Of a stretch of DNA of 64,000 nucleotides, positions 21,536-33,953 are shown in pieces. Both the position numbers and the translations under genes were made by a program. Origin of the DNA: Bryobacterales bacterium (GTDB taxonomy: Bacteria > Acidobacteriota > Terriglobia > Bryobacterales > UBA6623); NCBI GenBank assembly GCA_965206775.1, contig CBDBKU010000002.1, positions 2,255,796 through 2,319,795 on the forward strand, read 5' to 3'. Position 1 is the stretch's first letter, and the number at the start of each line of letters is the position of its first letter. Below the pieces are notes generated by a model, which was not told the DNA's origin, made no database searches, and worked only from the letters and a program-made list of their open reading frames with translations.

Positions 21536-22117
21536 TTAACCGCCAACCGCGGCCCGCTCAAACGGATGCTCGCGCCTTGCCTGAACCACCGCTCGCACTT
21601 GCTTCATCCCGAGGAACATGCGCGCCGGATCGCTGGCGAATGCCTTGAAGCCAAAGCTCTCGTACCACGCTTTGCGACGCGCAAACGCTTCTTCGCCCCC
21701 ATCCGAGATCACATCGAGAATGATCGCATGGCACCCAGCCATGTTGGAAACCGCGCACGCCTTCTCGAAGACATGGTGTATGAGTATGCCACCAAGACCT
21801 CTACCTTGCGCCGCGTTGTCCACTGCGACCTGCCCTAAGAACAGGACCGGAATTTCCCCATGATCCGGTGCCCCACGCGGTCGGCGGCTGAGCTCGTCCA
21901 CGTTCATCCGGCCCAAGTTCATTGCATGGTAGCCAAGGATGCGCGTGCTCCCCTCTTCGACGACAACATATATGCGCGTCATGTCATCCTTCTGCTGCTT
22001 CTTGCCAGTCAGCTTGAGGAATTTATTCAGCCGATCGACACCACAGTCAAATTCAGCGCGGTCATGGCGCGACGACTCGAATTGCTCGATTCTGAGGGCC
22101 CGTGGTTCAATCGGCAT
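21536..22117 (-). CDS. GNAT acetyltransferase toxin (TacT/KacT-like)
   Basis: MPIEPRALRIEQFESSRHDRAEFDCGVDRLNKFLKLTGKKQQKDDMTRIYVVVEEGSTRILGYHAM...LGQVAVDNAAQGRGLGGILIHHVFEKA...ESFGFKAF has the GNAT Q/RxxGxG/A motif and the DUF1778-partner architecture. The internal ATG at 22117 overlaps the antitoxin end. Confidence 0.8.
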   Translation of the reverse strand: MPIEPRALRIEQFESSRHDRAEFDCGVDRLNKFLKLTGKKQQKDDMTRIYVVVEEGSTRILGYHAMNLGRMNVDELSRRPRGAPDHGEIPVLFLGQVAVDNAAQGRGLGGILIHHVFEKACAVSNMAGCHAIILDVISDGGEEAFARRKAWYESFGFKAFASDPARMFLGMKQVRAVVQARREHPFERAAVGG

Positions 22118-22415
22118 GAACCACTCGCGCGCGATAGTTCCGGGCAGCCTCCAAGGCACGCGGGGTTGGAGCGGGAGGGGCATCGAGGGCGGCAGTGAAC
22201 AGCTCGGCGTCCTCGGGCGTCAAAACATGCACGGACTGCGCTTCAAGCACACGCATGGCCTCGCGCTCAATCGCTGCGCGCAGGAATACCGATTTATCGA
22301 TTGCCAGCGACTGTGCAGCACGCTCGATCAGGAGGGCTAGTCGATCATCGTGGCGCACCTGCGTGGTCCTGGTCCGCTTCGCCGAGGTAGGTGATGTGGT
22401 GTCGAAGTTCAACAT
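22107..22415 (-). CDS. DUF1778 (TacA-like) antitoxin
   Basis: RTTQVRHDDRLALLIERAAQSLAIDKSVFLRAAIEREAMRVLEAQSVHVLTPEDAELFTAALDAPPAPTPRALEAA is the typical DUF1778 RHH-like pattern. The start is taken at the ATG at 22415. Confidence 0.8.
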   Translation of the reverse strand: MLNFDTTSPTSAKRTRTTQVRHDDRLALLIERAAQSLAIDKSVFLRAAIEREAMRVLEAQSVHVLTPEDAELFTAALDAPPAPTPRALEAARNYRARVVHAD

Positions 22416-22620
22416 GGCCGGTCCTTTTGCGTAGGTCCATTGTAGTGCATTCTGCACTACATATCAAGGGCTAAGCCGGAGGTTCGGAGATGGATCGAGT
22501 CGCCGGCTCTCTCACCCGGCTGCAGTGTAACGGCACACCCTCGGCCGCTCCGGATCCGGCACCAAGACCGCTGGATCCACTCCGGCTGGCCAGCGACAAT
22601 GTCGGCCATAGTAGTCGCCA

Positions 22621-22867
22621 GTCAACCTGCCGTCTCCTGCCCGGCATTAGGCGGCCTGCGATGACGAACGGGGACCGTTCTGTCTCTAAACACTTCGCCT
22701 TGACCGAGTCCCTCGGCCTCCAAGTCCGGGGCGAGTTCTTCAATTTCACCGACACACCGGTCTTCGCTAGTCCGAACACAGCGGTGAGCAACAGGAACTT
22801 CGGGCGTATCTCGAGCCAATCCAATGTGCCGCGACAGATCCACGTCGGCCTCAAGCTGCTCTGGTAG
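22621..22867 (+). pseudogene. TonB-dependent receptor, last ~60 codons only (repeat copy A)
   Basis: ...[57 protein letters not shown] has the same C-terminal beta-strand and terminal aromatic pattern as the intact TBDRs here (…QFRAEAFNASNTPAFRRPNTQFGNRNFSLIGSAGRPRNLQFGLKVIF*). No upstream barrel is present. Confidence 0.65.
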
Positions 22868-22948
22868 GGTTGAGATTCCGCGTTTCCGGATCCCCGTCGC
22901 ACCGAGCCTCTGAGCGCGGCGCATCCATCGGGGGAGGGGAGCCTGGAA

Positions 22949-23090
22949 ATGTCGTCCATCACACGCCGCTCGTTCGTCCAGGCCGGTGCCGCCGGAGCTG
23001 CCGCCCATGTGCCGGCCGGATCTGCTCCGAACGTGCTGTTCATCATGCTTAACCAGTGGCGATTTGATTGCCTTGGCGACAACGACATCC
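22949..23090 (+). pseudogene. Sulfatase 5' fragment with Tat-like signal (repeat copy A)
   Basis: MSSITRRSFVQAGAAGAAAHVPAGSAPNVLFIMLNQWRFDCLG is followed by loss of similarity after about 23088. It is nearly identical to 25222-25352. Confidence 0.6.
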
Positions 23091-23601
23091 AGATCCGGCG
23101 CACGCTCACCCGCACCACGGCCGCCTCCTTCAGCAGCAAGGCCCGGATCGTCCCGAAGTGCGCCCGCGCCACTCCGTCCCCGCAAGCCCGCGCTGCCGCA
23201 GCACCTCCAGCAGCGCCGCTGTCTTAGGTTCGGCTCCCCTATCGGGCTCCGCAGACGCAGTGCACGAGTTTCCGCGTTAGCGACCGGTCGTCATGAGAGT
23301 CGTCGCCGACCCGGCAGGGACGTGCCCGCGGCGGAAATAGCGCGCCGGAACGAATCGCTGGCTGATCCCGTCGGTTGCGGAACAGCGGCCGCCTGTGGGT
23401 CAGTCCGGCCCAACCGCGCAGACCGGGCTCTGCAGCGCCTGAACCGTTCCAGCGCAAGGAGAACCGGAACTCCTGCTCTCCCGTGCCACGCAGCGGGACG
23501 CCGTGCGACCGTTCGAGTCAAGACACAAGGGAGGCAAGAGATTCTCGAATCTGAGCGAAATCAGAAACAATATTTTTCATTTAGACGTCTATTTAATAAA
23601 T

Positions 23602-24786
23602 ATGACTGCAATGACTTCTCGCGATCTGTGGTTGGTACGCGTGAATCAGGCTTGGTCGGATCGACCGATCGTTTGGCTGTCCGGCGTTCGAAGGGTCGGC
23701 AAGACGACGCTTGCCCGAATGCTTCCCCCTGCCGTTTACCTGAACTGCGACCTGCCCTCTACCGGCCGGGTGCTTCGCGATCCGGAGTTGTTTCTCGACA
23801 GCCAGTCATCTGGCACCGTATTGGTCTTTGACGAAGTGCATCGCTTGGAGGACCCCAGTCGGCTGCTCAAGATCGTGGCTGACGAGTACCCGGCACTTCG
23901 AGTGCTGGCGACCGGCTCCTCGACACTGTCCGCAACTCGCAAGTTCCGGGATTCCCTTACGGGGCGCAAGAGTTCGGTCCACCTGCAGCCAGTGCTCTGG
24001 GAGGAGTGCATCAACTGGCTAGGCACTTCCGACATCGACCGGCGACTGTTGCACGGCGGCCTGCCGGAAGCCCTGCTGGCAGAGAGAGTGTCCTCCGACT
24101 TCTTCAATGAGTGGATCGACAGCTTCTATGCGCGGGACATCCAGGAGCTGTTCCATGTCCGCAACCGCCGCGGCTTCCAAGCACTGTTCCGCCTGCTCTT
24201 GCGGCAGAGCGGGGGCCAGCTCGAGCTGAACCGGTTGGCGACGCTCTGCGAGTTGAGTCGGCCAACCGTCAGTTCGTATGTCGAGGCCATGGAGGTCACG
24301 CATGCGCTGCACTTGCTCCGGCCCTTTCACGGCGGCGGGAAGAGAGAGATCGTGGCGCGACCCAAGTGCTACTGCTTCGATACCGGATTCGCCTGTTTCG
24401 AGAAGGGCTGGACCAGCCTTCGACCAGACGACCGGGGAGTGCTGTGGGAGCACTTGGTACTGGACACCTTGCGGGGGCTGGTCAGCGACGGGAGCCTGTT
24501 CTACTGGCAGGACAAGTCGCGTCGGGAAGTGGATTTCGTAATCCGCAGGGATCGGAACCGCCTCGACACCGTCGAGTGCAAGATCAATCCGGATCAGGTC
24601 AACGCATCGGCGATTGAGGCATTTCGGGTTCTGTATCCGCAAGGACGCAACTTTGTCGTGTCCCCGAATGTCAAGAGGCACTACAGGATCCGTCGTCAGG
24701 ACCACGTCTTCGCGGTCTGTGACACAAGGGACTTGTCGAACCTGCTAGGTGCATCGGGGCACGTGGACGAGAGTTCCCATGCTTAG
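23602..24786 (+). CDS. AAA ATPase with DUF4143-type C-terminal domain
   Basis: The ATG at 23602 follows an AT-rich stretch. MTAMTSRDLWLVRVNQAWSDRPIVWLSGVRRVGKTTLARML is the Walker A, VLVFDEVHRL the Walker B. The C-terminal part is RPKCYCFDTGFACFEKGW...WQDKSRREVDFVIRRDRNRLDTVECKINP (DUF4143/PD-DExK-like tail). Confidence 0.85.
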   Translation: MTAMTSRDLWLVRVNQAWSDRPIVWLSGVRRVGKTTLARMLPPAVYLNCDLPSTGRVLRDPELFLDSQSSGTVLVFDEVHRLEDPSRLLKIVADEYPALRVLATGSSTLSATRKFRDSLTGRKSSVHLQPVLWEECINWLGTSDIDRRLLHGGLPEALLAERVSSDFFNEWIDSFYARDIQELFHVRNRRGFQALFRLLLRQSGGQLELNRLATLCELSRPTVSSYVEAMEVTHALHLLRPFHGGGKREIVARPKCYCFDTGFACFEKGWTSLRPDDRGVLWEHLVLDTLRGLVSDGSLFYWQDKSRREVDFVIRRDRNRLDTVECKINPDQVNASAIEAFRVLYPQGRNFVVSPNVKRHYRIRRQDHVFAVCDTRDLSNLLGASGHVDESSHA

Positions 24787-24894
24787 AGGATCAGTAGAGA
24801 GTTCGAGCGCATGTGAACTGGATGGACTGGATTGACTCCGATGAGTGGGGTCTGTGTGCGGGTTGGCCAACATGCAAATTCTTCGCTTGCGGCC

Positions 24895-25139
24895 GCCAAC
24901 CGGCCGTCTGCTGCCCGGCACTAGGCGGCCTGCGGTGACGAGCTGGGACTTTTCTGTCTTGCGAAACTTCGTCTTGAGCGAGTCCTCGGGGCCTCCAAGT
25001 CCGGGGCAATTCCAACTTCACCGACACGCCGGTCTTCGCGAGTCCGAACACAGCGGTGAGCAACAGGAACTTCGGGCGTGTCTCGAGCCAATCGAATGCG
25101 CCGCGACAGATCCAAATCGGCCTCAAGCTGCTCTGGTAG
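24895..25139 (+). pseudogene. TonB-dependent receptor 3' fragment (repeat copy B, frameshifted)
   Basis: It is the nucleotide homolog of 22621-22867 and ends with the same ...GLKLLW* (stop 25137-25139). Small indels break the frame, so the ...QVRGEFFNFTD stretch of copy A is out of frame here (its nucleotide counterpart reads [10 protein letters not shown] in the 24845 track frame). Confidence 0.55.
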
Positions 25140-25221
25140 GGTTGAGATTCCGCGTTTCCGGATCGCTGTCGCACCCAGCCTCCGAGCGTGTGGCGCATCC
25201 GTCGGGGAGGGGCGCCTGGAA

Positions 25222-26717
25222 CTGTCGTCATTCACACGCCGCTCGTTCGTGCAGGCCGGTGCCGCCGGAGCTGCCGCCCAGGTGCCGGCCGGATCTGCTC
25301 CGAACGTGCTGTTCATCATGCTTGACCAGTGGCGCTTTGATTGCCTTGGCGCCAACGGCAACACGATCCTCCAGACGCCTCACCTCGACCGGCTGGCCTC
25401 GCGATCTGCGAATTTCACGCAAGCGTGAGTGCAGGCGCCTGTCTGCGTCCCGTCTCGCGTCAGCTTCTTCACGGGCCGCTATCCTCATTCCCACAAGAAC
25501 CGCGTCAACTACACGCCGTACCAGCAGCCTGAGCCCATGATGCAACGGTTGCTGCGCGACGCCGGCTACCGGACCGGTTCCGTCGGCAAGCTGCACTTTC
25601 ATCCTCCGACGGCCGAGCATGCACGCGAGACAGGATTGGATCAGGTGCAGCTCGACGACGGCCTTCGTCGCACGGACCGCTACTCCGACTACGTCAAGTG
25701 GAGGGGCGCCAGCGATCCCAACTTCGGCATCCATTACCAGACGACTGTCGCTGGAGTTCCATCTGGCCGCAATCCTTTTCGCGCGGTCATTGACAAGGAA
25801 TACACTCCGACCGAATGGACCGGTCGTGAGATACGAAACACTTTGCGTGGCTTGGCATCTTCAGGACGACCGTTTTTCCTGTTCTCGTCCTACTTCAAGC
25901 CGCATTCGCCCCACACCATCCCTGAGCCGTACGACGCCCTCTACAACGACGCGGACATTCCGTTGCCTAGGCACCTGGATCTGCATTACATCCAGCGGCT
26001 TCCGCTTCCTGTTCAAAAGATGATCCTTCGCGGAACGCCGAGGTTCGGCATGGACCGCCAGCGGCTGCTTTGGATGTACCGAAGCTACTACGGGGACATA
26101 ACGTGGCTTGACGATGAAGTGGGTGCGACGCTCGCGGAACTCGATAGTAGCGGCCAGTCGGACAACACGATCATCATCGTGACGACCGACCACGGAGACC
26201 AGATGCTGGAGCACGGCCTGCTTGGCAAGAACGTGTTATTCGAGGACTCCGTGCGGATCCCGCTGTTGGTGAGCTGGCCAGGGCGCATCCGACCGGGGAT
26301 TTACTCCGAACTCATTGAATCGGTGGATGTGCTGCCCAGCGTGCTGGAGCTATGCGGGGTGCCCGTCCCGGAGCATGTCCAAGGGCGGAGCTTCGCTTCG
26401 CTGGTGGCGGGCGAGCGGGGCACGTTCGAGCCGCGCCGGGCCCAGTTCGCCGAGAACATCATGCCGGAAGTCATTGCGAACGGCGACGAGGGTTGTTTCT
26501 TCACGCCCGGATGGTGCGCACCAACCGATGGAAACTGAACTACTACGTGGGGCATGGAGGGGAGTTGCACGACCTCGAAGACGATCCCGGCAAGTGGGTC
26601 AATCTATACGACGATCCGACTTATCAGGGGATTGTCCGTGACTTGAAAGGCCAGTTGCTCGATTGGATGATCGCCGCCGACGAGAATGGCCAAATCGCCC
26701 GCAGGTGGCTCGTCTAG
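25222..26717 (+). pseudogene. Sulfatase with lost ATG, in-frame TGA and a 3' frameshift
   Basis: CTG sits at 25222 where copy A has ATG. The sequence reads ...LDQWRFDCLGANGNTILQTPHLDRLASRSANFTQA-TGA(25426-25428)-VQAPVCVPSRVSFFTGRYPHSH, with the CxPxR formylglycine motif just after the stop. There is a frameshift near 26500 (...GCFFTPGW / ...RMVRTNRWKLNYYVGHGGELHDLEDDPGKWVNLYDDP). Confidence 0.8.
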
Positions 26718-26980: not shown

Positions 26981-28438
26981 CTAGGCGTCGATTCGTTTCA
27001 TGAGCCTCTTGGTTTCGATGTAGAGCAGTAGTTCGTCGTCGTGGGTGATCGGCCTTGCGTGCATGGTGTCTAGACGGATTGGATGCAGGCGCTGGAATGA
27101 TTCGCGTACGTTCTCCGTGCGGTCGAAGAACGTGCTGAACACTTGGCGCCAGTTGTCACGCCTGCAGATGATGAGCACATAGTCGGTGAAGTCGGCGTAG
27201 GCGATGAGGGGACGCGCAGGGGCGCCGGAGCGGTCGGCGGCTTCTTGCTTCTCTTTCCACTCGTCGTACTTGTTGTTGGGCAGTTGGTGTCTCGGCCAGT
27301 CCGACCCGAAGGCATGGGTCATCGCGTCGTCGATGAAGCGGCGGAGTTGCGTCTCGAGACGCTGGAGCCTTTCGTGGGCCTCGTTTGTGCGGGCGAGGGC
27401 CTCCTCTTCCTCGAGGTCGCGCGCCAGCGGCACTGGCTGGCCGTAGGCCTCGACCAAGCAAGGAGGCTCGGACCGGATGCGGGCAATGGCGGAGGCCTCA
27501 CGAAAGGCCTGAGCAGGCAAGTCGGTAAGATTTGCGTCGAACCCGAGGTCGACGTAAAACTCCGCCCGGGCGCCCAAGTCGGACCAAATCTGCCGCGGCC
27601 ACGAGATCGTGTCGCGCCAGTCACCGAGGCTGGCACGGAGACTCTCGGCGGCTGTCCGTTCGAATGAAGATGTGCGTGAGACGAGCTCGCCGATCGCCTG
27701 CAGGTCGAAGAGGCGTTGGATGGAGCCGAGCTTGTTTTCCATGTCGAGCCACGGTGACCGCATCGACGCGATGCTGCGTTGGAACGAGGCGGCAGAGCGG
27801 GCTAGGTTAGAGGCGGTCCCGAACTCGTCGACGAGGCGAGAGAGTTCCCGAGATTGGGGGATCTGGAAGCGACGCTCGTAATCAACGAGCCACCGGCTCG
27901 TGTGGGCTAGGTTGTTGCGCAAGGCTGTGTTGAATACCCCCGCAGATCGTAGTTCGGCGAGGGTGCCCTCGAGTGCGCGCAACATTTGGAGGTTGGTGTC
28001 GACGATACGAAACGATCGCTCGACGGCGTGGAGTTGATCGCGGAGTGCGTGATTGCACTCGATGGCCTTGATCGCCGAGGCTTTCGTGTCCGCGACAGTC
28101 ATTGCCGCTCTCGCCGCATGGGCAGCGTTGCGCAACGCCTCGGTTTCCCGAGGGACGATCTGCTCTAGAATGCGCGTACGGGCATCCGTCTCGGCTTGGC
28201 GAATCTGCCACGCCTGTTGGAGATTCAGCCAGAACTGCATTGTGGTGTCGAAGTAGCGGCCGAGTCGAAGTGCAGTGTCGGCGGTGATGCCGCGATCACC
28301 ATTGAGGATCGCGGTGACGCGATTGGCAGGAACGTGGATGGCCTTGGCGAGCGCGTTTGCTGACAGCCCGATTTCGTCGAGTTCGTCGCGCAACACCTCG
28401 CCCGGATGCACCGGAGCCATCCCGCTCTTGGTGGTCAT
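26981..28438 (-). CDS. HigA-type HTH antitoxin fused to a long helical region and a C-terminal Swt1-like HEPN domain
   Basis: 485-aa ORF. The N-terminus is PVHPGEVLRDELDEIGLSANALAKAIHVPANRVTAILNGDRGITADTALRLGRYFDTTMQFWLNLQQAWQIRQAE (HigA/XRE). The C-terminus is FGSDWPRHQLPNNKYDEWKEKQEAA...LIAYADFTDYVLIICRRDNWRQVFSTFFDRTENVRESFQRLHPIRLDTMHARPIT, with an Rx4H motif at R455-H460. Confidence 0.7.
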   Translation of the reverse strand: MTTKSGMAPVHPGEVLRDELDEIGLSANALAKAIHVPANRVTAILNGDRGITADTALRLGRYFDTTMQFWLNLQQAWQIRQAETDARTRILEQIVPRETEALRNAAHAARAAMTVADTKASAIKAIECNHALRDQLHAVERSFRIVDTNLQMLRALEGTLAELRSAGVFNTALRNNLAHTSRWLVDYERRFQIPQSRELSRLVDEFGTASNLARSAASFQRSIASMRSPWLDMENKLGSIQRLFDLQAIGELVSRTSSFERTAAESLRASLGDWRDTISWPRQIWSDLGARAEFYVDLGFDANLTDLPAQAFREASAIARIRSEPPCLVEAYGQPVPLARDLEEEEALARTNEAHERLQRLETQLRRFIDDAMTHAFGSDWPRHQLPNNKYDEWKEKQEAADRSGAPARPLIAYADFTDYVLIICRRDNWRQVFSTFFDRTENVRESFQRLHPIRLDTMHARPITHDDELLLYIETKRLMKRIDA

Positions 28439-28453
28439 GTCACAGATCCTCGC

Positions 28454-28732
28454 TCAATGGTAGTCCACGATTTCCACGTCGCAGGGCCCCTCGTCTGTCC
28501 AGCGGAAACAGATACGCCATTGATCGTTGATCCGGATGCTGTGCTGGCCGGCGCGATTTCCGCGCAGAGCCTTGAGCCGGTTGCTGCGCAGACCAGCAAG
28601 ATCGCGCAAGGCATCGGCACTCTGCAAGACGGTAAGGCGGCGCGTGGCCTGGCTGGCGACTCGCTGAAAACGGGCGACCCGAGCGCCCTCGAAGAACCGC
28701 CTCGTGTCCCTGTCCTTGAAGGTTTGGATCAT
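28454..28732 (-). CDS. higB: HigB-type toxin
   Basis: MIQTFKDRDTRRFFEGARVARFQRVASQATRRLTVLQSADALRDLAGLRSNRLKALRGNRAGQHSIRINDQWRICFRWTDEGPCDVEIVDYH. The internal ATG at 28732 belongs to track ORF 28454-28777. The gene ends 16 nt before the HTH gene start. Confidence 0.8.
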   Translation of the reverse strand: MIQTFKDRDTRRFFEGARVARFQRVASQATRRLTVLQSADALRDLAGLRSNRLKALRGNRAGQHSIRINDQWRICFRWTDEGPCDVEIVDYH

Positions 28733-29000
28733 GCAATGGCGTGAACCGTAGCCGAAATTACGAACTACGTAAAGCATAACACAAAGCGAGCGTCGATCCC
28801 TCGTCCGACGATGTCTCAGATCCTACAGCGCTATCTCATGCTCGACGCTCGCCAATTACTGGGGATGGTGCCGACCAGCATGCGGATGTGCCACTGCTTT
28901 CGAGACGTTTGACGCCCACGAGTTGTCCAAGCAGAAGATCGTAGAGCCGAAAATGGACGAGGTCGAAAGAGTGGAGATCTCCGGTGCCGATGACCAGCGG

Positions 29001-29675
29001 CTACGGCGGGAAGCCAGTATATGGTCTGAATTCGCCGAGGTCGATGAAGTTACGGCGGTACCATCCGAACGACGGGTCCATGTAGGGAACGAATATCTCG
29101 GACAAGTGCCCTTGGTACATCACCGATCGGTCTGGACCGCCGGGTTTCTCTTGGTAGCTCACCAATGAGAGGACCGCAACGAGGCGCTGGTCGGGCCGCA
29201 GGTGGAACCGCCAGTTCTGCCCACGTACCCGGTACCCGTCGAATTCGAATCCAGGACCGAGAGGCTGGCGCGTGTCGAGCGGGCCGGGAACCTCGCGGGG
29301 GTGTTCGAGTGTCGTGCGGTCGAAGTCACCGTTGGTTCCGGTGATCGGTACGGGACCGTCGTCCACGACCCGCAAGATCTCTTCCGAGTCGAGATCGACC
29401 ACCGCCGTCAGGCCCTCGACTTGCCGGGTCCAGGCGTTCCGGACTCCGCGGGGCTCGGAGCACCGGACGTTGCCAAGGCGCCGCCCGCGTTCTTCCTCGG
29501 TTCCGAAGTAGCCCGGCGGTCCCGTGCTACATGCGAGGAAGGTGGTGTCGTTGATTCCGCGAGCCTCGTGAATGTGATGCCGATGTCTCGGGCGTCCCGG
29601 TGTGTCGAGTTGGCGTGCCGACCGATTGACCCTATGCCTGCAGCAGGCGTCGCTGCAGCAACGTCTGCATCTCAC
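29001..29675 (-). pseudogene. Copper amine oxidase fragment (N3 domain and start of the catalytic domain)
   Basis: ...PLGPGFEFDGYRVRGQNWRFHLRPDQRLVAVLSLVSYQEKPGGPDRSVMYQGHLSEIFVPYMDPSFGWYRRNFIDLGEFR matches the conserved copper amine oxidase stretch (GF...G..V.W.NW.F......R.G..L..V.Y.D....R.V.Y..S..EM.VPYGDP). The TPQ-containing catalytic part is absent. Confidence 0.6.
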
Positions 29676-29958
29676 GCCGCCCGTCAGCGATGACGAGCAC
29701 GTAGACCGTATCCTCGGTCACCCGGTAGATGATGGGGTGGGGCTTGAAGAAGACCTCCCGGAATTCCCGAATCCCGATGTCGAGCAGTATCCTCGGATAG
29801 CTCCCGCGCTGGGGATGCTCGGACAGGCCCTGGCACGCCCTTTCGATTTGTTCCAGCACGTAATCCGCCCGGGCCGGCGAATCGTGTCGGTCGATGTAGT
29901 CGCAGATCTCTTCCAGGTCGCGGGCCGCGTCATCGGTCAACTGAACCTGACAGGCCAT
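29632..29958 (-). CDS. parE: ParE/RelE-family toxin
   Basis: MACQVQLTDDAARDLEEICDYIDRHDSPARADYVLEQIERACQGLSEHPQRGSYPRILLDIGIREFREVFFKPHPIIYRVTEDTVYVLVIADGRREM is the ParE pattern. Its ATG overlaps the antitoxin stop. Confidence 0.8.
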   Translation of the reverse strand: MACQVQLTDDAARDLEEICDYIDRHDSPARADYVLEQIERACQGLSEHPQRGSYPRILLDIGIREFREVFFKPHPIIYRVTEDTVYVLVIADGRREMQTLLQRRLLQA

Positions 29959-30233
29959 CAGCGCTCCCGTTGCCGCTCCCGGAGCCGGGCGATCACGTCT
30001 ACAGTGGGTTCCACCTGACCGGCTTCGATCTGCCGGTTGCCCAGCGCGAGAATCTTGAGCAGCGCCATCGTCTCCTGCGTCTTCTCGAAGCTGTCGATGT
30101 CCTGCAGGACCACCTTGGCTTCGCCGTTCTGAGTGATGATCAGCGGCTCTCCCTGCTCACCGAGCGTGCGCACGATCTCCGAGGCGTGGGCCTTGAGGTG
30201 ACTGATCGGCTTGATCTGGCGGGACAGTTTCAT
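29958..30233 (-). CDS. Phd/YefM-type antitoxin
   Basis: MKLSRQIKPISHLKAHASEIVRTLGEQGEPLIITQNGEAKVVLQDIDSFEKTQETMALLKILA. The internal ATG at 30233 belongs to track ORF 29958-30284. Confidence 0.8.
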   Translation of the reverse strand: MKLSRQIKPISHLKAHASEIVRTLGEQGEPLIITQNGEAKVVLQDIDSFEKTQETMALLKILALGNRQIEAGQVEPTVDVIARLRERQRER

Positions 30234-30409
30234 GGGCACTTCCTTCCCAGTCCAAATATAGTCCATAAACAGGTCCGTGGACAAGGGCGGACTTCGCCGG
30301 TCGGCAACTGCTAGCGAAGACCGCCGGCACCCTGTCGCCGAGCGGACCCTCTAGCCAAGTCTTTCACCAACCCACCCTCAAGGACTATCCTGACACCAAC
30401 CAGCTTCCT

Positions 30410-31172: not shown

Positions 31173-31264
31173 GTGTTCACGTTCCTTCGGAACAGGTGTT
31201 CACGATGGATCGGAATGAGCGTTCACGTTCCTTCGGAATGAGCGTTCACATTCGCCGGAATACG
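31173..31264. repeat. Four tandem 23-bp repeats
   Basis: The units are GTGTTCACGTTCCTTCGGAACAG / GTGTTCACGATGGATCGGAATGA / GCGTTCACGTTCCTTCGGAATGA / GCGTTCACATTCGCCGGAATACG, head to tail. They sit at the broken end of the IS5-like transposase fragment. Confidence 0.75.
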
Positions 31265-31728
31265 CACCGCATCGTGGCGTCCACCGCCACCGTCCGCCCC
31301 TGGGTGGGCCAAACCCGCCTCGCGCAGTTGCCCCAGCACCCACCCGAAGACCTGCTCATGGACCTCCAGGCTGATCCGCCGCCGGGTCCGCGAGATCGTC
31401 GAGTGGTCCGGCGGGCTCTGCTGCAGCTCGTAGCCGAGGAAGGCCCGCAGCCCGAGCGAGTCGCTCACGTTCAGGGCTCGGAGTCGATGCCCAGCAGATA
31501 GCCCAGCAGCAGCCGGAAGTACACGCCGGGAACCAGCGAGGGGCGCCCCAGGCGTGCGGCATAGAACGGCCGGCACAGCTGCTCGACATAGGCGTCAAAG
31601 CCCATCTGGTCGAGCAGTTCGTTGAGCTTGACAAAGCAGGGAGCGGTCGGGGCCTGAGGCAGCTGGTCCTGCGTCAGGAACATCGCGATCTGCTCGGGCT
31701 TGCGGGAACCCATCGCCATGCCATCCAT
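31223..31728 (-). pseudogene. IS5-superfamily transposase, N-terminal (DUF772-like) fragment, frameshifted
   Basis: MFLTQDQLPQAPTAPCFVKLNELLDQMGFDAYVEQLCRPFYAARLGRPSLVPGVYFRLLLGYLLGIDSE is followed in a second frame by RALNVSDSLGLRAFLGYELQQSPPDHSTISRTRRRISLEVHEQVFGWVLGQLREAGL. No DDE domain follows. Confidence 0.65.
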
Positions 31729-31750: not shown

Positions 31751-33953
31751 TTGTTGGACTTCCAATCGAGTGAGTTTTACCACGGGCTGCTAGACCGCAA
31801 CGCCGGCATTGAGTACTTCGATTCACCGCGAGACAACGAAGCCATCTACGACACCTATGTGATCGACTGCGTGCCTGAGCGAGAGGATCTTGGCTGCATG
31901 CAGTTGATCACTTCGACCAGCAATCTTGAGGAAATGCACTCATTGCTTGACAGATCTCTCGACCGGATAGGCCTTAGCCAGAGCACCCTGACCGCAGAGT
32001 TTCTCCTGGACCACCTAAAGGCACTCAGCGGTCGGCTGGCTATCCGTCTAACCGGGCAGGACATTCCGAGCGCTGAGCTCGTAGCGCTTGCGGCCAGCCG
32101 TGCCCTTTGCCTCCAAGAGCGGGCGTCAGATAGGGGAGAGTGCTGGACATCTCTCGATGACGGCTTTCTGGTTCCAGCGGACGACGTCCACGAACTGCTG
32201 CCGCCGTTGGATACGACGAAACGCAAGACCGGCCTACTTTCTGGCCTGATCCACGTCTCGGTGACGCCACCCCGTGGCAAATTGCGCTTCCGATTCATCG
32301 AGGTGAAGCACCGTCGCCATCTCCGAGCTGGGCGAGACCCCACAGTGCTTCGTGATGTGCGTGAGCAGGTCGAGACTTTGCGAAAGAGTTGGAACAAGTG
32401 GTATTCCACGAGGAATCCCCGGTCCTTCCGGGCCCTCCGGCGGGCGAAGTTGGCTCGGGTCCTGAGGTTCTACGCCGACAAGGCGCGTCGGCACCATTTG
32501 TCGGAGGAACGGCACCGGGTCATCACGAGCGAGATTGATCGCATGCTTGCCGAGGGTAGTAGCTACGACTTCCGGGAAGCCGAGCGAGACGACCGGTGTT
32601 GGATCTTCTGTCCCGAATACGCCGGCACCCGGCCTACCGAGATCTCTCCTGCCGACTGGAAAGTGCGAATCTTCCTGTTTGGCCCGGATCTGCTGCCCGA
32701 CCCGAGCGGACAACTCCCGGCGGTCGAACAGACGCCGGAAAGGGTCGTGAACGGGTCGGCGGAACTTGTGCAAGCTCCTCCACCTGCACCCACGGATGAG
32801 AGCGAGCCCTCGCCGTCTCTGGATGGTGGAGTCCGCTCTCCCGGTACCGAGAATATGGCTCCGAACTTGCTCCTAGGCCATGCAGGTTCGACCGGCGCGG
32901 AAGCGCGCTGGCCGTTGACCGTCAAGGGCAACCCTCACCTGCTCGTGGCCGGTCTGCCTGGTATGGAAGACCACCTTGCTATTGAACCTCTGCCAGCAAA
33001 TGGTCGAGGCCGACGTTCGGCCGATCGTGTTCTCTTACCATCAGGATATTGACGAGAAACTCGCGGAGTCGGCCAGAGATGTTCGATTCATCGATTTCGA
33101 CGGATTGGGTTTCAACCCGCTACACGTTCCTGACCGGGGTTCGCCGACGGCGTATCTCGATGTTGGTGGTGCGCTTCGGGACATCTTCACGGCAACCTAT
33201 CCAGACCTTGGGGACCTTCAAGGGGAACGCATCCGGAAAGCTATCAGGGACAGCTTCACCGAGGCGGGATGGGGCGGCCAGAATGTGACGGCGGATCTGG
33301 AGGCTCCTCCTTTCAGGCGCTTTGTGGAGATCTTGCAAAGCGAGCCGAGGCCGGACCGGGGTCTGCAATCACTGCTTGCGCGTCTGTCGGAACTGGATGA
33401 CTACCGCTTCTTCGAGCCCGGGGAACTTCATGGTAGTCTCTGGGAAAGCGATCGGCTGACCATTGTCCGCATCCACAAGACCCGGAGTGACAACCTGCAG
33501 AGAGCATTCGCCCACCTGATCTTCTACGGTCTCTATAAGGACATGTTCCGTCGCGGTGTTCAGGATCGGATCACCCACGCCCTGATATTTGACGAGGCCC
33601 ATCGAGCCGCGGGATTGAAGCTGATTCCCACGATGGCCAAGGAATGCCGCAAGTACGGCATATCTCTCACGCTCGCTTCGCAAGGAGCGAGGGACTTCGA
33701 TTCCTCCTTGTTTTCGGCCATTGCCAACTACCTCGTGATGAAGCTGACCGAGGCGGACGCGAAGGCGTTAGTCAGGAATGTCTCCGACTCGCAACAGGAG
33801 CGAAGATTGGTCGACGCGGTAAAGCAAATGGAGAAGTTCAAGGCGCTGTACTTCCGCGAAGGGACGAGAGCGCCTTCGCACGTGAACCTCCTCGGGCCGA
33901 GGTGTTCGGTCCCGACGGAAGTGCACGAAGAGCCAATGCCGAAAATCATGTGA
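31751..33953 (+). pseudogene. HerA/FtsK-type (DUF87-like) P-loop ATPase with a PD-(D/E)xK-like upstream domain; N-terminally truncated and frameshifted inside the Walker A
   Basis: Two track ORFs (31751-33052 and 32976-33953) join if 2 nt are restored in CTGCCTGGTATGGAAGACCACC. The join reads ...NPHLLVAGLPGM(GK)TTLLLNLCQQM. Downstream are HALIFDEAHRAAG (Walker B) and MAKECRKYGISLTLASQGARDFD. The upstream part contains GLIHVSVTPPRGKLRFRFIEVKHRR. The ORF opens right at the IS5-like remnant. Confidence 0.65.

Follow-up and report, generated by a model that had tools for sequence, protein, structure and literature searches.

The 64,000-nucleotide (nt) stretch of DNA analysed here ("the window") comes from a Bryobacterales bacterium (Acidobacteriota; GenBank assembly GCA_965206775.1, contig CBDBKU010000002.1, forward-strand positions 2,255,796 to 2,319,795), and carries on its minus strand a toxin-antitoxin (TA) pair of the HigBA type in which the antitoxin gene continues far beyond its usual length. 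Read 5' to 3', higB is followed after a short spacer by a 485-amino-acid (aa) open reading frame (ORF), which begins as a HigA antitoxin and ends in a predicted Swt1-family HEPN domain (Table 1). An initial annotation, made from the letters and a list of their ORFs, had proposed a normal-size HigB paired with this long protein, and profile matches as well as solved-structure relatives bear out the pairing. HigB matches Pfam PF05015 (HigB-like_toxin) at 49.2 bits (cut-off 27), and its best solved relative is GraT from P. putida (6f8s_B, E 1e-26), in an alignment that spans all of HigB and preserves the C-terminal DYH. A longer, 107-aa reading of HigB from an ATG at 28777 is available; we prefer the 92-aa start because this upstream ATG lies inside a conserved putative operator and because homologues begin with MIRSFKDRDT. 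The spacer between the two genes had been given as 16 nt and measures 15 nt, in line with the 14-16 nt found in related loci (L035, L038 and L001-L005).

Table 1. Coordinates of the higB/HigA-HEPN locus and of other features in the window (position 1 is the first letter of the window).
Feature	Position	Strand	Remarks and basis
higB	28454..28732	-	92-aa GraT/HigB-type RelE-fold toxin; PF05015 and GraT alignment
higB-to-fusion-gene spacer	28439..28453	-	15 nt, contains GAGG; read from the sequence
HigA-HEPN fusion gene	26981..28438	-	485 aa, coordinates including stop codon; ORF listing, homologues, AF2 model
HigA/GraA-type XRE-HTH antitoxin domain, complete	28154..28438	-	aa 1-95; TIGR02607, PDB profile search, Foldseek
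m1, variable helical region	27797..28153	-	aa 96-214; stand-alone relatives start about here
m2, conserved helical domain	27404..27796	-	aa 215-345; accompanies the HEPN domain
Swt1-family HEPN domain (predicted)	26984..27403	-	aa 346-485; PF18731, PADLOC PDC-M34B, AF2 helices
R455-x4-H460 motif (IRLDTMHARPI), predicted RNase active site	27059..27076	-	conservation, helix position
Putative HigA operator, 22-bp palindrome TTATGCTTTACGTAGTTCGTAA	28758..28779	-	ends 25 nt upstream of the higB ATG
TacT GNAT toxin / TacA	21536-22457		flanking TA pair
AAA_14/DUF4143 ATPase	23503-24786
Sulfatase	25429-26717		looks frameshifted near 3' end
Truncated copper amine oxidase gene	29001-29675		between HigB and ParE
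ParE / Phd (Phd/YefM)	29632-30284		flanking TA pair
ORFs resembling transposase (insertion sequence, IS) fragments	31223-31728		translations judged by eye only

The N-terminal part of the long protein, first described as a HigA/XRE helix-turn-helix (HTH), proved to be a complete HigA. Residues 7-84 match the NCBIfam equivalog TIGR02607 (antidote_HigA) at 92.2 bits (cut-off 47.7), a profile search of the PDB retrieves known HigA and GraA structures (3trb, 7csv, 6jpi, 6f8h/6f8s; E 1e-22 to 1e-28), and Foldseek superposes the domain on solved HigA/GraA with TM-scores of 0.81-0.88 (normalised to the ~95-aa targets). The resemblance to described GraTA/HigBA systems (GraT-GraA of P. putida, 6f8s; HigA of P. 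aeruginosa, 7csv and 6jpi; HigA of Coxiella, 3trb) extends to gene order (toxin first, then a short spacer), to the 92-aa HigB with DYH at its end, to an antitoxin domain 46-54% identical and to a palindrome upstream of the toxin gene. They differ in that the known HigA proteins are single-domain proteins of ~100 aa, whereas the window antitoxin has 390 extra residues, HEPN domain included. Judged at the sequence level, the pair is thus a HigBA/GraTA system in every respect except the size of its antitoxin.

Upstream of higB, the palindrome is the sole conserved block in the DNA of six loci compared. The window has a single occurrence of its pattern (TTAYGnTTTACGTAAnnCRTAA), where 0.02 would be expected, and 14 related loci likewise have one each, in every case at a distance of 20-30 nt upstream of higB. 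Such a palindrome is the expected signature of a HigA operator, and is probably bound by the HigA domain. No third gene is conserved after higB and the fusion gene in the compared loci, the flanking genes differ, and other genomes have the same two genes set between unrelated housekeeping genes; the pair therefore moves as a unit.

An obvious concern with so long an antitoxin is that two genes had been joined by an assembly error. A homologue search of 5.8 billion proteins returned 942 matches. The HTH plus HEPN_Swt1 architecture recurs at full length (472-512 aa) in ~70 clusters formed at 90% identity, which stem from ENA, JGI, NCBI and Logan assemblies, closed chromosomes of metagenome-assembled genomes (MAGs) included. 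In a scan of species-representative genomes, the fusion turned up in Acidobacteriota (Candidatus Multivorans, 70% identity) and Gammaproteobacteria (Azotimanducaceae, Pseudomonadales) as well as in a deltaproteobacterial MAG. The recurrence of the same fusion in many independent assemblies rules out an artefact, and the single long ORF is real. The AlphaFold2 (AF2) model of the whole protein is all helical and confident (predicted local distance difference test, pLDDT, 89.4; predicted template-modelling score, pTM, 0.82), and that of residues 95-485 alone even more so (pLDDT 92.1, pTM 0.92).

Where the antitoxin ends, a second complete protein seems to begin. Many relatives are ~400 aa long, lack the HTH and start at positions equivalent to window residues ~85-95 (alignment A1). 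Residues 96-485 align with these stand-alone proteins from end to end at 45-50% identity, both sharing the m2 domain, the HEPN domain and the IRxDTMHxRPI signature. The fusion junction thus corresponds to the natural C-terminus of a ~100-aa HigA and to the natural N-terminus of the stand-alone HEPN proteins, and the window gene is best described from its sequence as an end-to-end fusion of two complete genes. The stand-alone family is large: an HMMER search with residues 95-485 yielded 1535 clusters at 50% identity, 473 of them at E <1e-30. Its members, named "Swt1 family HEPN domain-containing protein" by the NCBI annotation pipeline PGAP, mostly have no adjacent toxin and are mostly without HigB. 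Members are present on 19 plasmid records and absent from phage records, and their neighbours include a type II restriction-modification system, a conjugation gene cluster, Fic, TIR and DUF499-HEPN proteins, and genes of cyclic-oligonucleotide-based antiphage signalling systems (CBASS), surroundings that are typical of defence islands and mobile elements.

What the stand-alone family has in common corresponds to window residues ~215-485, with N-termini that vary. The m1 profile detects 189/266 relatives and m2 is present in 265/266, with invariant m2 residues that include W230, R268, LGDWR (271-275), W280 and R291; in longer relatives (567-666 aa) we recognised no extra N-terminal domain, just repetitive helical sequence. 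A long helical middle without an assigned function had been noted, and the AF2 model is indeed all helical here, with no match for residues 96-345 in Pfam, NCBIfam or PADLOC. The PDB and BFVD hold no fold match for m2, which thus has no detectable relative among solved or viral structures. That m2 might be a degenerate second HEPN domain, as in Swt1 or Cas13, was considered and rejected (hhalign probabilities <1%). The conserved C-terminal unit had been confined to the last ~130 residues; its HEPN identity stands, and the unit itself has to be extended to residues ~215-485.

The HEPN assignment, originally a matter of resemblance to Swt1-like domains, now has a profile match above the gathering threshold: residues 358-484 match Pfam PF18731 (HEPN_Swt1) at 35.7 bits (cut-off 27.5, E 1.2e-8), covering positions 3-115 of the 115-position profile, and a precomputed PF18731 match is carried by most homologues, with distant members matching as well. 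Within the same region lies a partial match to PADLOC PDC-M34B, a candidate defence protein (29 bits, E 1.7e-7, profile positions 60-175 of 192); as for the partner A protein of PDC-M34, HigB matched no PADLOC model. Profile searches of solved structures, with the whole family or the HEPN region alone, found no relative beyond HigA. The AF2 helices of the C-terminal domain span residues 349-377, 390-403, 441-459 and 466-484, with an insert of short helices between the second and third, and R455-H460 runs from the end of helix 441-459 into the loop that follows. A survey of HEPN domains puts the Rx4-6H motif at the end of the third helix (Anantharaman et al., 2013, PMC3710099), and the modelled helix layout fits that description.

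R455 and H460 are encoded where they had been placed (codons 27074-27076 and 27059-27061), and the survey of homologues found them kept in 98-99% of 261 relatives (R455 in 258/261, H460 in 257/261; the nearby R462 in 258/261). Broken down by architecture, all three residues are kept in all 188 stand-alone relatives and in 93% of fused ones. The residue after the motif Arg is Leu in the window protein, which had raised doubts about its catalytic competence. A polar N, D or H at this place is a typical, not an obligatory, HEPN feature (PMC3710099), which the window protein lacks; the special doubt about this copy does not hold, since the residue is L, I or V in 219/261 relatives (Asn in 22/261, His in 8/261), and a hydrophobic residue shared family-wide is therefore no mark of decay in the window copy.

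The association of this module with RelE-type TA pairs is not limited to the lineage of the window. In a neighbour-joining tree of the core region, most HigA-fused proteins are separate from the stand-alone proteins, while two N-terminally extended proteins (P0073 and P0096) nest within the stand-alone clade. The HigA of P0073 belongs to a different subfamily (TIGR02607, 79.8 bits; HTH 32% identical to that of the window), and a HigB-like remnant, of a different type, lies upstream. Directly upstream of P0096 (JGI protein name "DNA-binding phage protein") lies a Gp49 (PF05973) toxin gene; the N-terminus of P0096 matched no Pfam or NCBIfam model, and presumably belongs with the COG3636-type antitoxins that pair with Gp49 toxins, which it resembles. 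Gp49, antitoxin and HEPN genes also stand in a row, unfused, in L100. On the conjugative Sulfitobacter sp. CB2047 plasmid pSpoCB-3 (L044, 3002-5020), MqsR, MqsA and a Swt1-family HEPN protein are encoded consecutively and unfused (MqsR/MqsA overlap of 8 nt, MqsA-HEPN gap of 12 nt), next to mCpol and DncV-like CBASS genes. In all linked cases, the RelE-fold toxin comes first and the HEPN module lies immediately 3' of the HTH antitoxin. These data point to at least four separate joinings, with two HigA subfamilies (fused), with Gp49 and its antitoxin (both fused and unfused) and with MqsRA (unfused). Given four independent associations, chance is unlikely, and the recurrence suggests a functional partnership rather than an accident.

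We therefore read the window pair as a mobile two-gene module: an autoregulated GraTA/HigBA-type pair whose antitoxin is fused to a complete Swt1-family HEPN protein of the stand-alone kind, and which would carry a latent, predicted second RNase. With the two-gene architecture, domain identities, conserved motif, palindrome and recurrent linkage given by profiles, alignments and gene context, and with the RNase activity and defence role of the fusion protein being what we infer from its sequence, we put the probability of this reading at roughly 0.55. The earlier suggestion that the antitoxin may itself bear a second effector or a sensing module gains weight because the part following the HTH is a widespread self-standing HEPN protein, repeatedly recruited to RelE-type pairs.

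Could the HEPN part be a mere passenger, that is, a neighbouring gene fused to higA by loss of a stop codon and kept because the antitoxin is indispensable (addiction), with no interplay between the halves? The junction of two natural protein ends and the existence of unfused three-gene arrangements are what such an origin would leave behind, as is the loss of HEPN catalytic residues solely in fused lineages: R455/H460 substitutions occur in 5/72 fused and 0/188 stand-alone proteins (Fisher p 0.0015, uncorrected for phylogeny). Against this, independent linkage to four RelE-type pairs, always immediately 3' of the antitoxin, is hard to call accidental. The main fused group, which has a GraA-type HigA, is moreover old (identities down to ~43%), spans several phyla, and has kept the whole 390-aa module and the motif in 93% of its members. 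We accordingly consider the passenger explanation quite unlikely.

The state of HigB and of the motif across fused members bears on which half does the work. HigB is intact in the window and in most other fused loci, spacing retained (L001-L005, L035-L041, L052, L053 and L114-L116), and the large majority of fused members, the window included, are predicted to keep both activities. An apparent decay of HigB in the P0043 loci, where a 32-aa gene had been called, was refuted by an ORF scan that recovered an intact 92-aa HigB. Two loci from marine gammaproteobacterial MAGs (L007 and L009) combine a pseudogenised HigB with a His460->Ile change while their ~505-aa ORF is still open, and in P0071 the residue at the His460 position is Met and the gene calls show no HigB upstream. 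A deletion in L006 has fused HigB in frame to a truncated HigA, with the HEPN motif kept; in P0018, P0023 and P0044, Arg or His is lost and HigB is intact. Altogether, Arg or His loss, seen in the loci L007 and L009 and in P0018, P0023, P0044, P0071 and P0174, is confined to HTH-fused members. We also asked whether HigB and the HEPN motif replace each other by complementary loss; the pattern is mixed, and we draw no conclusion from it.

The first of these cases hint at joint loss, as would be expected if the HEPN domain were the main toxin and HigB/HigA chiefly its regulator, in a tripartite system where binding of HigB to the HigA domain controls HEPN. The joint-loss cases (L007/L009 and P0071) are confined to one small subclade, however, while the L006 deletion removed HigB and spared the motif, the three P proteins with intact HigB did the reverse, and most stand-alone HEPN proteins have no HigB at all, which together make this arrangement improbable.

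The same losses can be seen from another side. Loss of Arg or His in fused members may reflect domestication as a plain regulator, and the whole module might be a sensor or regulator, binding RNA, a phage product or a small ligand, whereupon the HigA domain would free HigB or derepress the operon, with HigB as the only effector; the conserved Arg and His would then serve binding or limited self-regulatory cleavage. It fits with such a role that the module is always on or beside a DNA-binding or antitoxin component and never on the toxin, that some fused members devoid of the Arg or His keep an intact HigB and an open frame, that the residue after the Arg is hydrophobic, and that non-catalytic HEPN folds act as regulators (MtlR) or RNA sensors (eukaryotic Swt1; PMC3710099). 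It fits poorly with the retention of R455, H460 and R462 described above, a pattern typical of an active site, with the lack of a toxin to regulate at most stand-alone loci, and with the prediction that bacterial Swt1-family members are catalytically active (PMC3710099). On balance, we regard a purely sensory or regulatory role as unlikely. Our reading of the contrast between architectures is that predicted HEPN catalysis would be the reason for the stand-alone proteins, and that in fused proteins the frame can stay open by virtue of the antitoxin role once catalysis is gone.

Under the preferred reading of a HigBA-type pair with a latent second RNase, the HigA domain would dimerise, neutralise HigB and repress the operon at the palindrome. 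The HEPN part would be a latent metal-independent RNase, restrained by its own m1-m2 helices as in the stand-alone proteins, and the fusion would couple its dose and expression to the TA switch, one-to-one with the antitoxin. HEPN RNases work as dimers in which the active site is composite, and a HigA dimer would bring two HEPN domains together. A trigger (e.g., phage infection or loss of repression) could then release two RNases, HigB acting on ribosome-bound mRNA plus the HEPN domain, with growth arrest or abortive infection as the outcome.

Several observations weigh against this reading. The residue following the catalytic Arg is hydrophobic where N, D or H is usual. Foldseek retrieved no solved or viral structure resembling residues 95-485, HEPN structures included, so that it is the Pfam profile and the helix topology that support the HEPN fold assignment. 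R455 or H460 is missing from five fused members, of which three retain an intact HigB, from which it would seem that the fusion protein can persist as an antitoxin in the absence of HEPN catalysis. A folded protein of 485 aa is at odds with the labile antitoxin usually pictured, and both the restraint of the HEPN part and its switching on are steps that we infer. Finally, a literature search on HigA-HEPN, Swt1-like HEPN, PF18731 and PDC-M34 yielded only the 2013 HEPN survey (PMC3710099), from which this architecture is absent, and no paper on the family.

Compared with described systems, the window pair is neither a HEPN-MNT system, nor a member of Abi_2, nor a PDC-M34 system. HEPN-MNT (minimal nucleotidyltransferase) TA modules likewise combine two genes in a TA-like manner and include a HEPN domain bearing Rx4H; there, HEPN serves as toxin and the nucleotidyltransferase as antitoxin, whereas here HEPN belongs to another HEPN family and sits on the antitoxin polypeptide. 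We found no nucleotidyltransferase/MNT gene beside the fusion gene, whose neighbours are HigB and the frameshifted sulfatase. AbiD/AbiF/Abi2 form a sister family within the same HEPN clade (PMC3710099), and are, like the stand-alone relatives, all-helical single proteins (350-400 aa) found in defence contexts; their N-terminal domains differ from those of the present family, and the fusion protein has no match to Pfam Abi_2 at E up to 1. The stand-alone Swt1-family proteins (PF18731), which differ from the fusion in having no HTH and usually no adjacent toxin, constitute the bacterial active branch of the Abi2/Swt1 clade, for which the 2013 survey gives partners of AAA+, helicase, transmembrane and PIN type and no HigA, RelE or antitoxin fusion (PMC3710099).

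The closest analogies are tripartite TA systems, in which a further gene follows that of the antitoxin. In toxin-antitoxin-chaperone (TAC) systems, HigBA or MqsRA is accompanied by a third gene for a SecB-like chaperone that stabilises the antitoxin. They share the RelE-fold toxin, the HTH antitoxin and a third component right after the antitoxin, a layout matched by MqsR-MqsA-HEPN and Gp49-antitoxin-HEPN in their unfused form; a chaperone takes the third place in TAC systems, and here a HEPN protein that is often fused to the antitoxin. It is tempting to speculate that the m2-HEPN protein is a dedicated third component of RelE-superfamily TA pairs (HigBA of two subfamilies, Gp49 with its HTH antitoxin, and MqsRA), fused to the antitoxin or encoded immediately behind it, and that such systems represent an undescribed dual-RNase, antitoxin-tethered class of TA or defence systems in which the antitoxin couples a ribosome-dependent mRNase to a latent HEPN RNase, each state controlling the other; this generalisation is offered tentatively, as a possibility about which we remain doubtful.

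Type II antitoxins are generally seen as neutralisers that are small and labile, and here a complete antitoxin is joined to a conserved predicted RNase. Were the HEPN domain an active effector, one repressor would control both nucleases of this TA system, which would then be a compact abortive-infection candidate; were it a sensor, it would represent a new way of triggering HigB. Either way, the fusion would give a first functional handle on the large, uncharacterised family of Swt1-family HEPN proteins found on plasmids and in defence islands.

Some further arrangements were seen around the stand-alone genes. A recurring cassette consists of a SeqA_N/RAMA-like gene (~140 aa), then the HEPN protein, then a Lit-like Peptidase_U49 (L014, L024, L050, L051 and L057; the peptidase also in L011, L025 and L033), and looks like another undescribed multi-effector module. 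In L049 (1502-4205), overlapping genes code for Fic (411 aa), for an 89-aa product that matches nothing in Pfam and for a stand-alone HEPN relative, with a TIR protein and a DUF499-HEPN_Swt1 protein close by. Elsewhere, a conserved 116-aa protein is encoded directly upstream of the stand-alone HEPN gene (L010 3551-3901, L015 3523-3873, L054 1880-2227); by eye it has hydrophobic segments followed by CxxC...CxxC, which suggests a membrane protein with a zinc ribbon.

In the window itself, the region around the higB-fusion pair is variable, with many TA genes and gene fragments (Table 1). Beside the IS-like ORFs, two ORFs of 433 and 325 aa with overlapping ends (31751-33953) have only a weak TraG-D_C match in Pfam. 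The AAA_14/DUF4143 ATPase gene is flanked by a direct repeat of ~490 bp (22616-23105 and 24890-25378, 81-93% identical), each copy of which carries the twin-arginine translocation (TAT)-signal N-terminus of a sulfatase. In four unrelated contigs (the window; L009, 5855-7117; L113, 3361-4425; L114, 3744-4458), an ATPase gene of this kind is found no more than a few kb away from a HigA-HEPN gene, a co-occurrence compatible with either linkage or chance.

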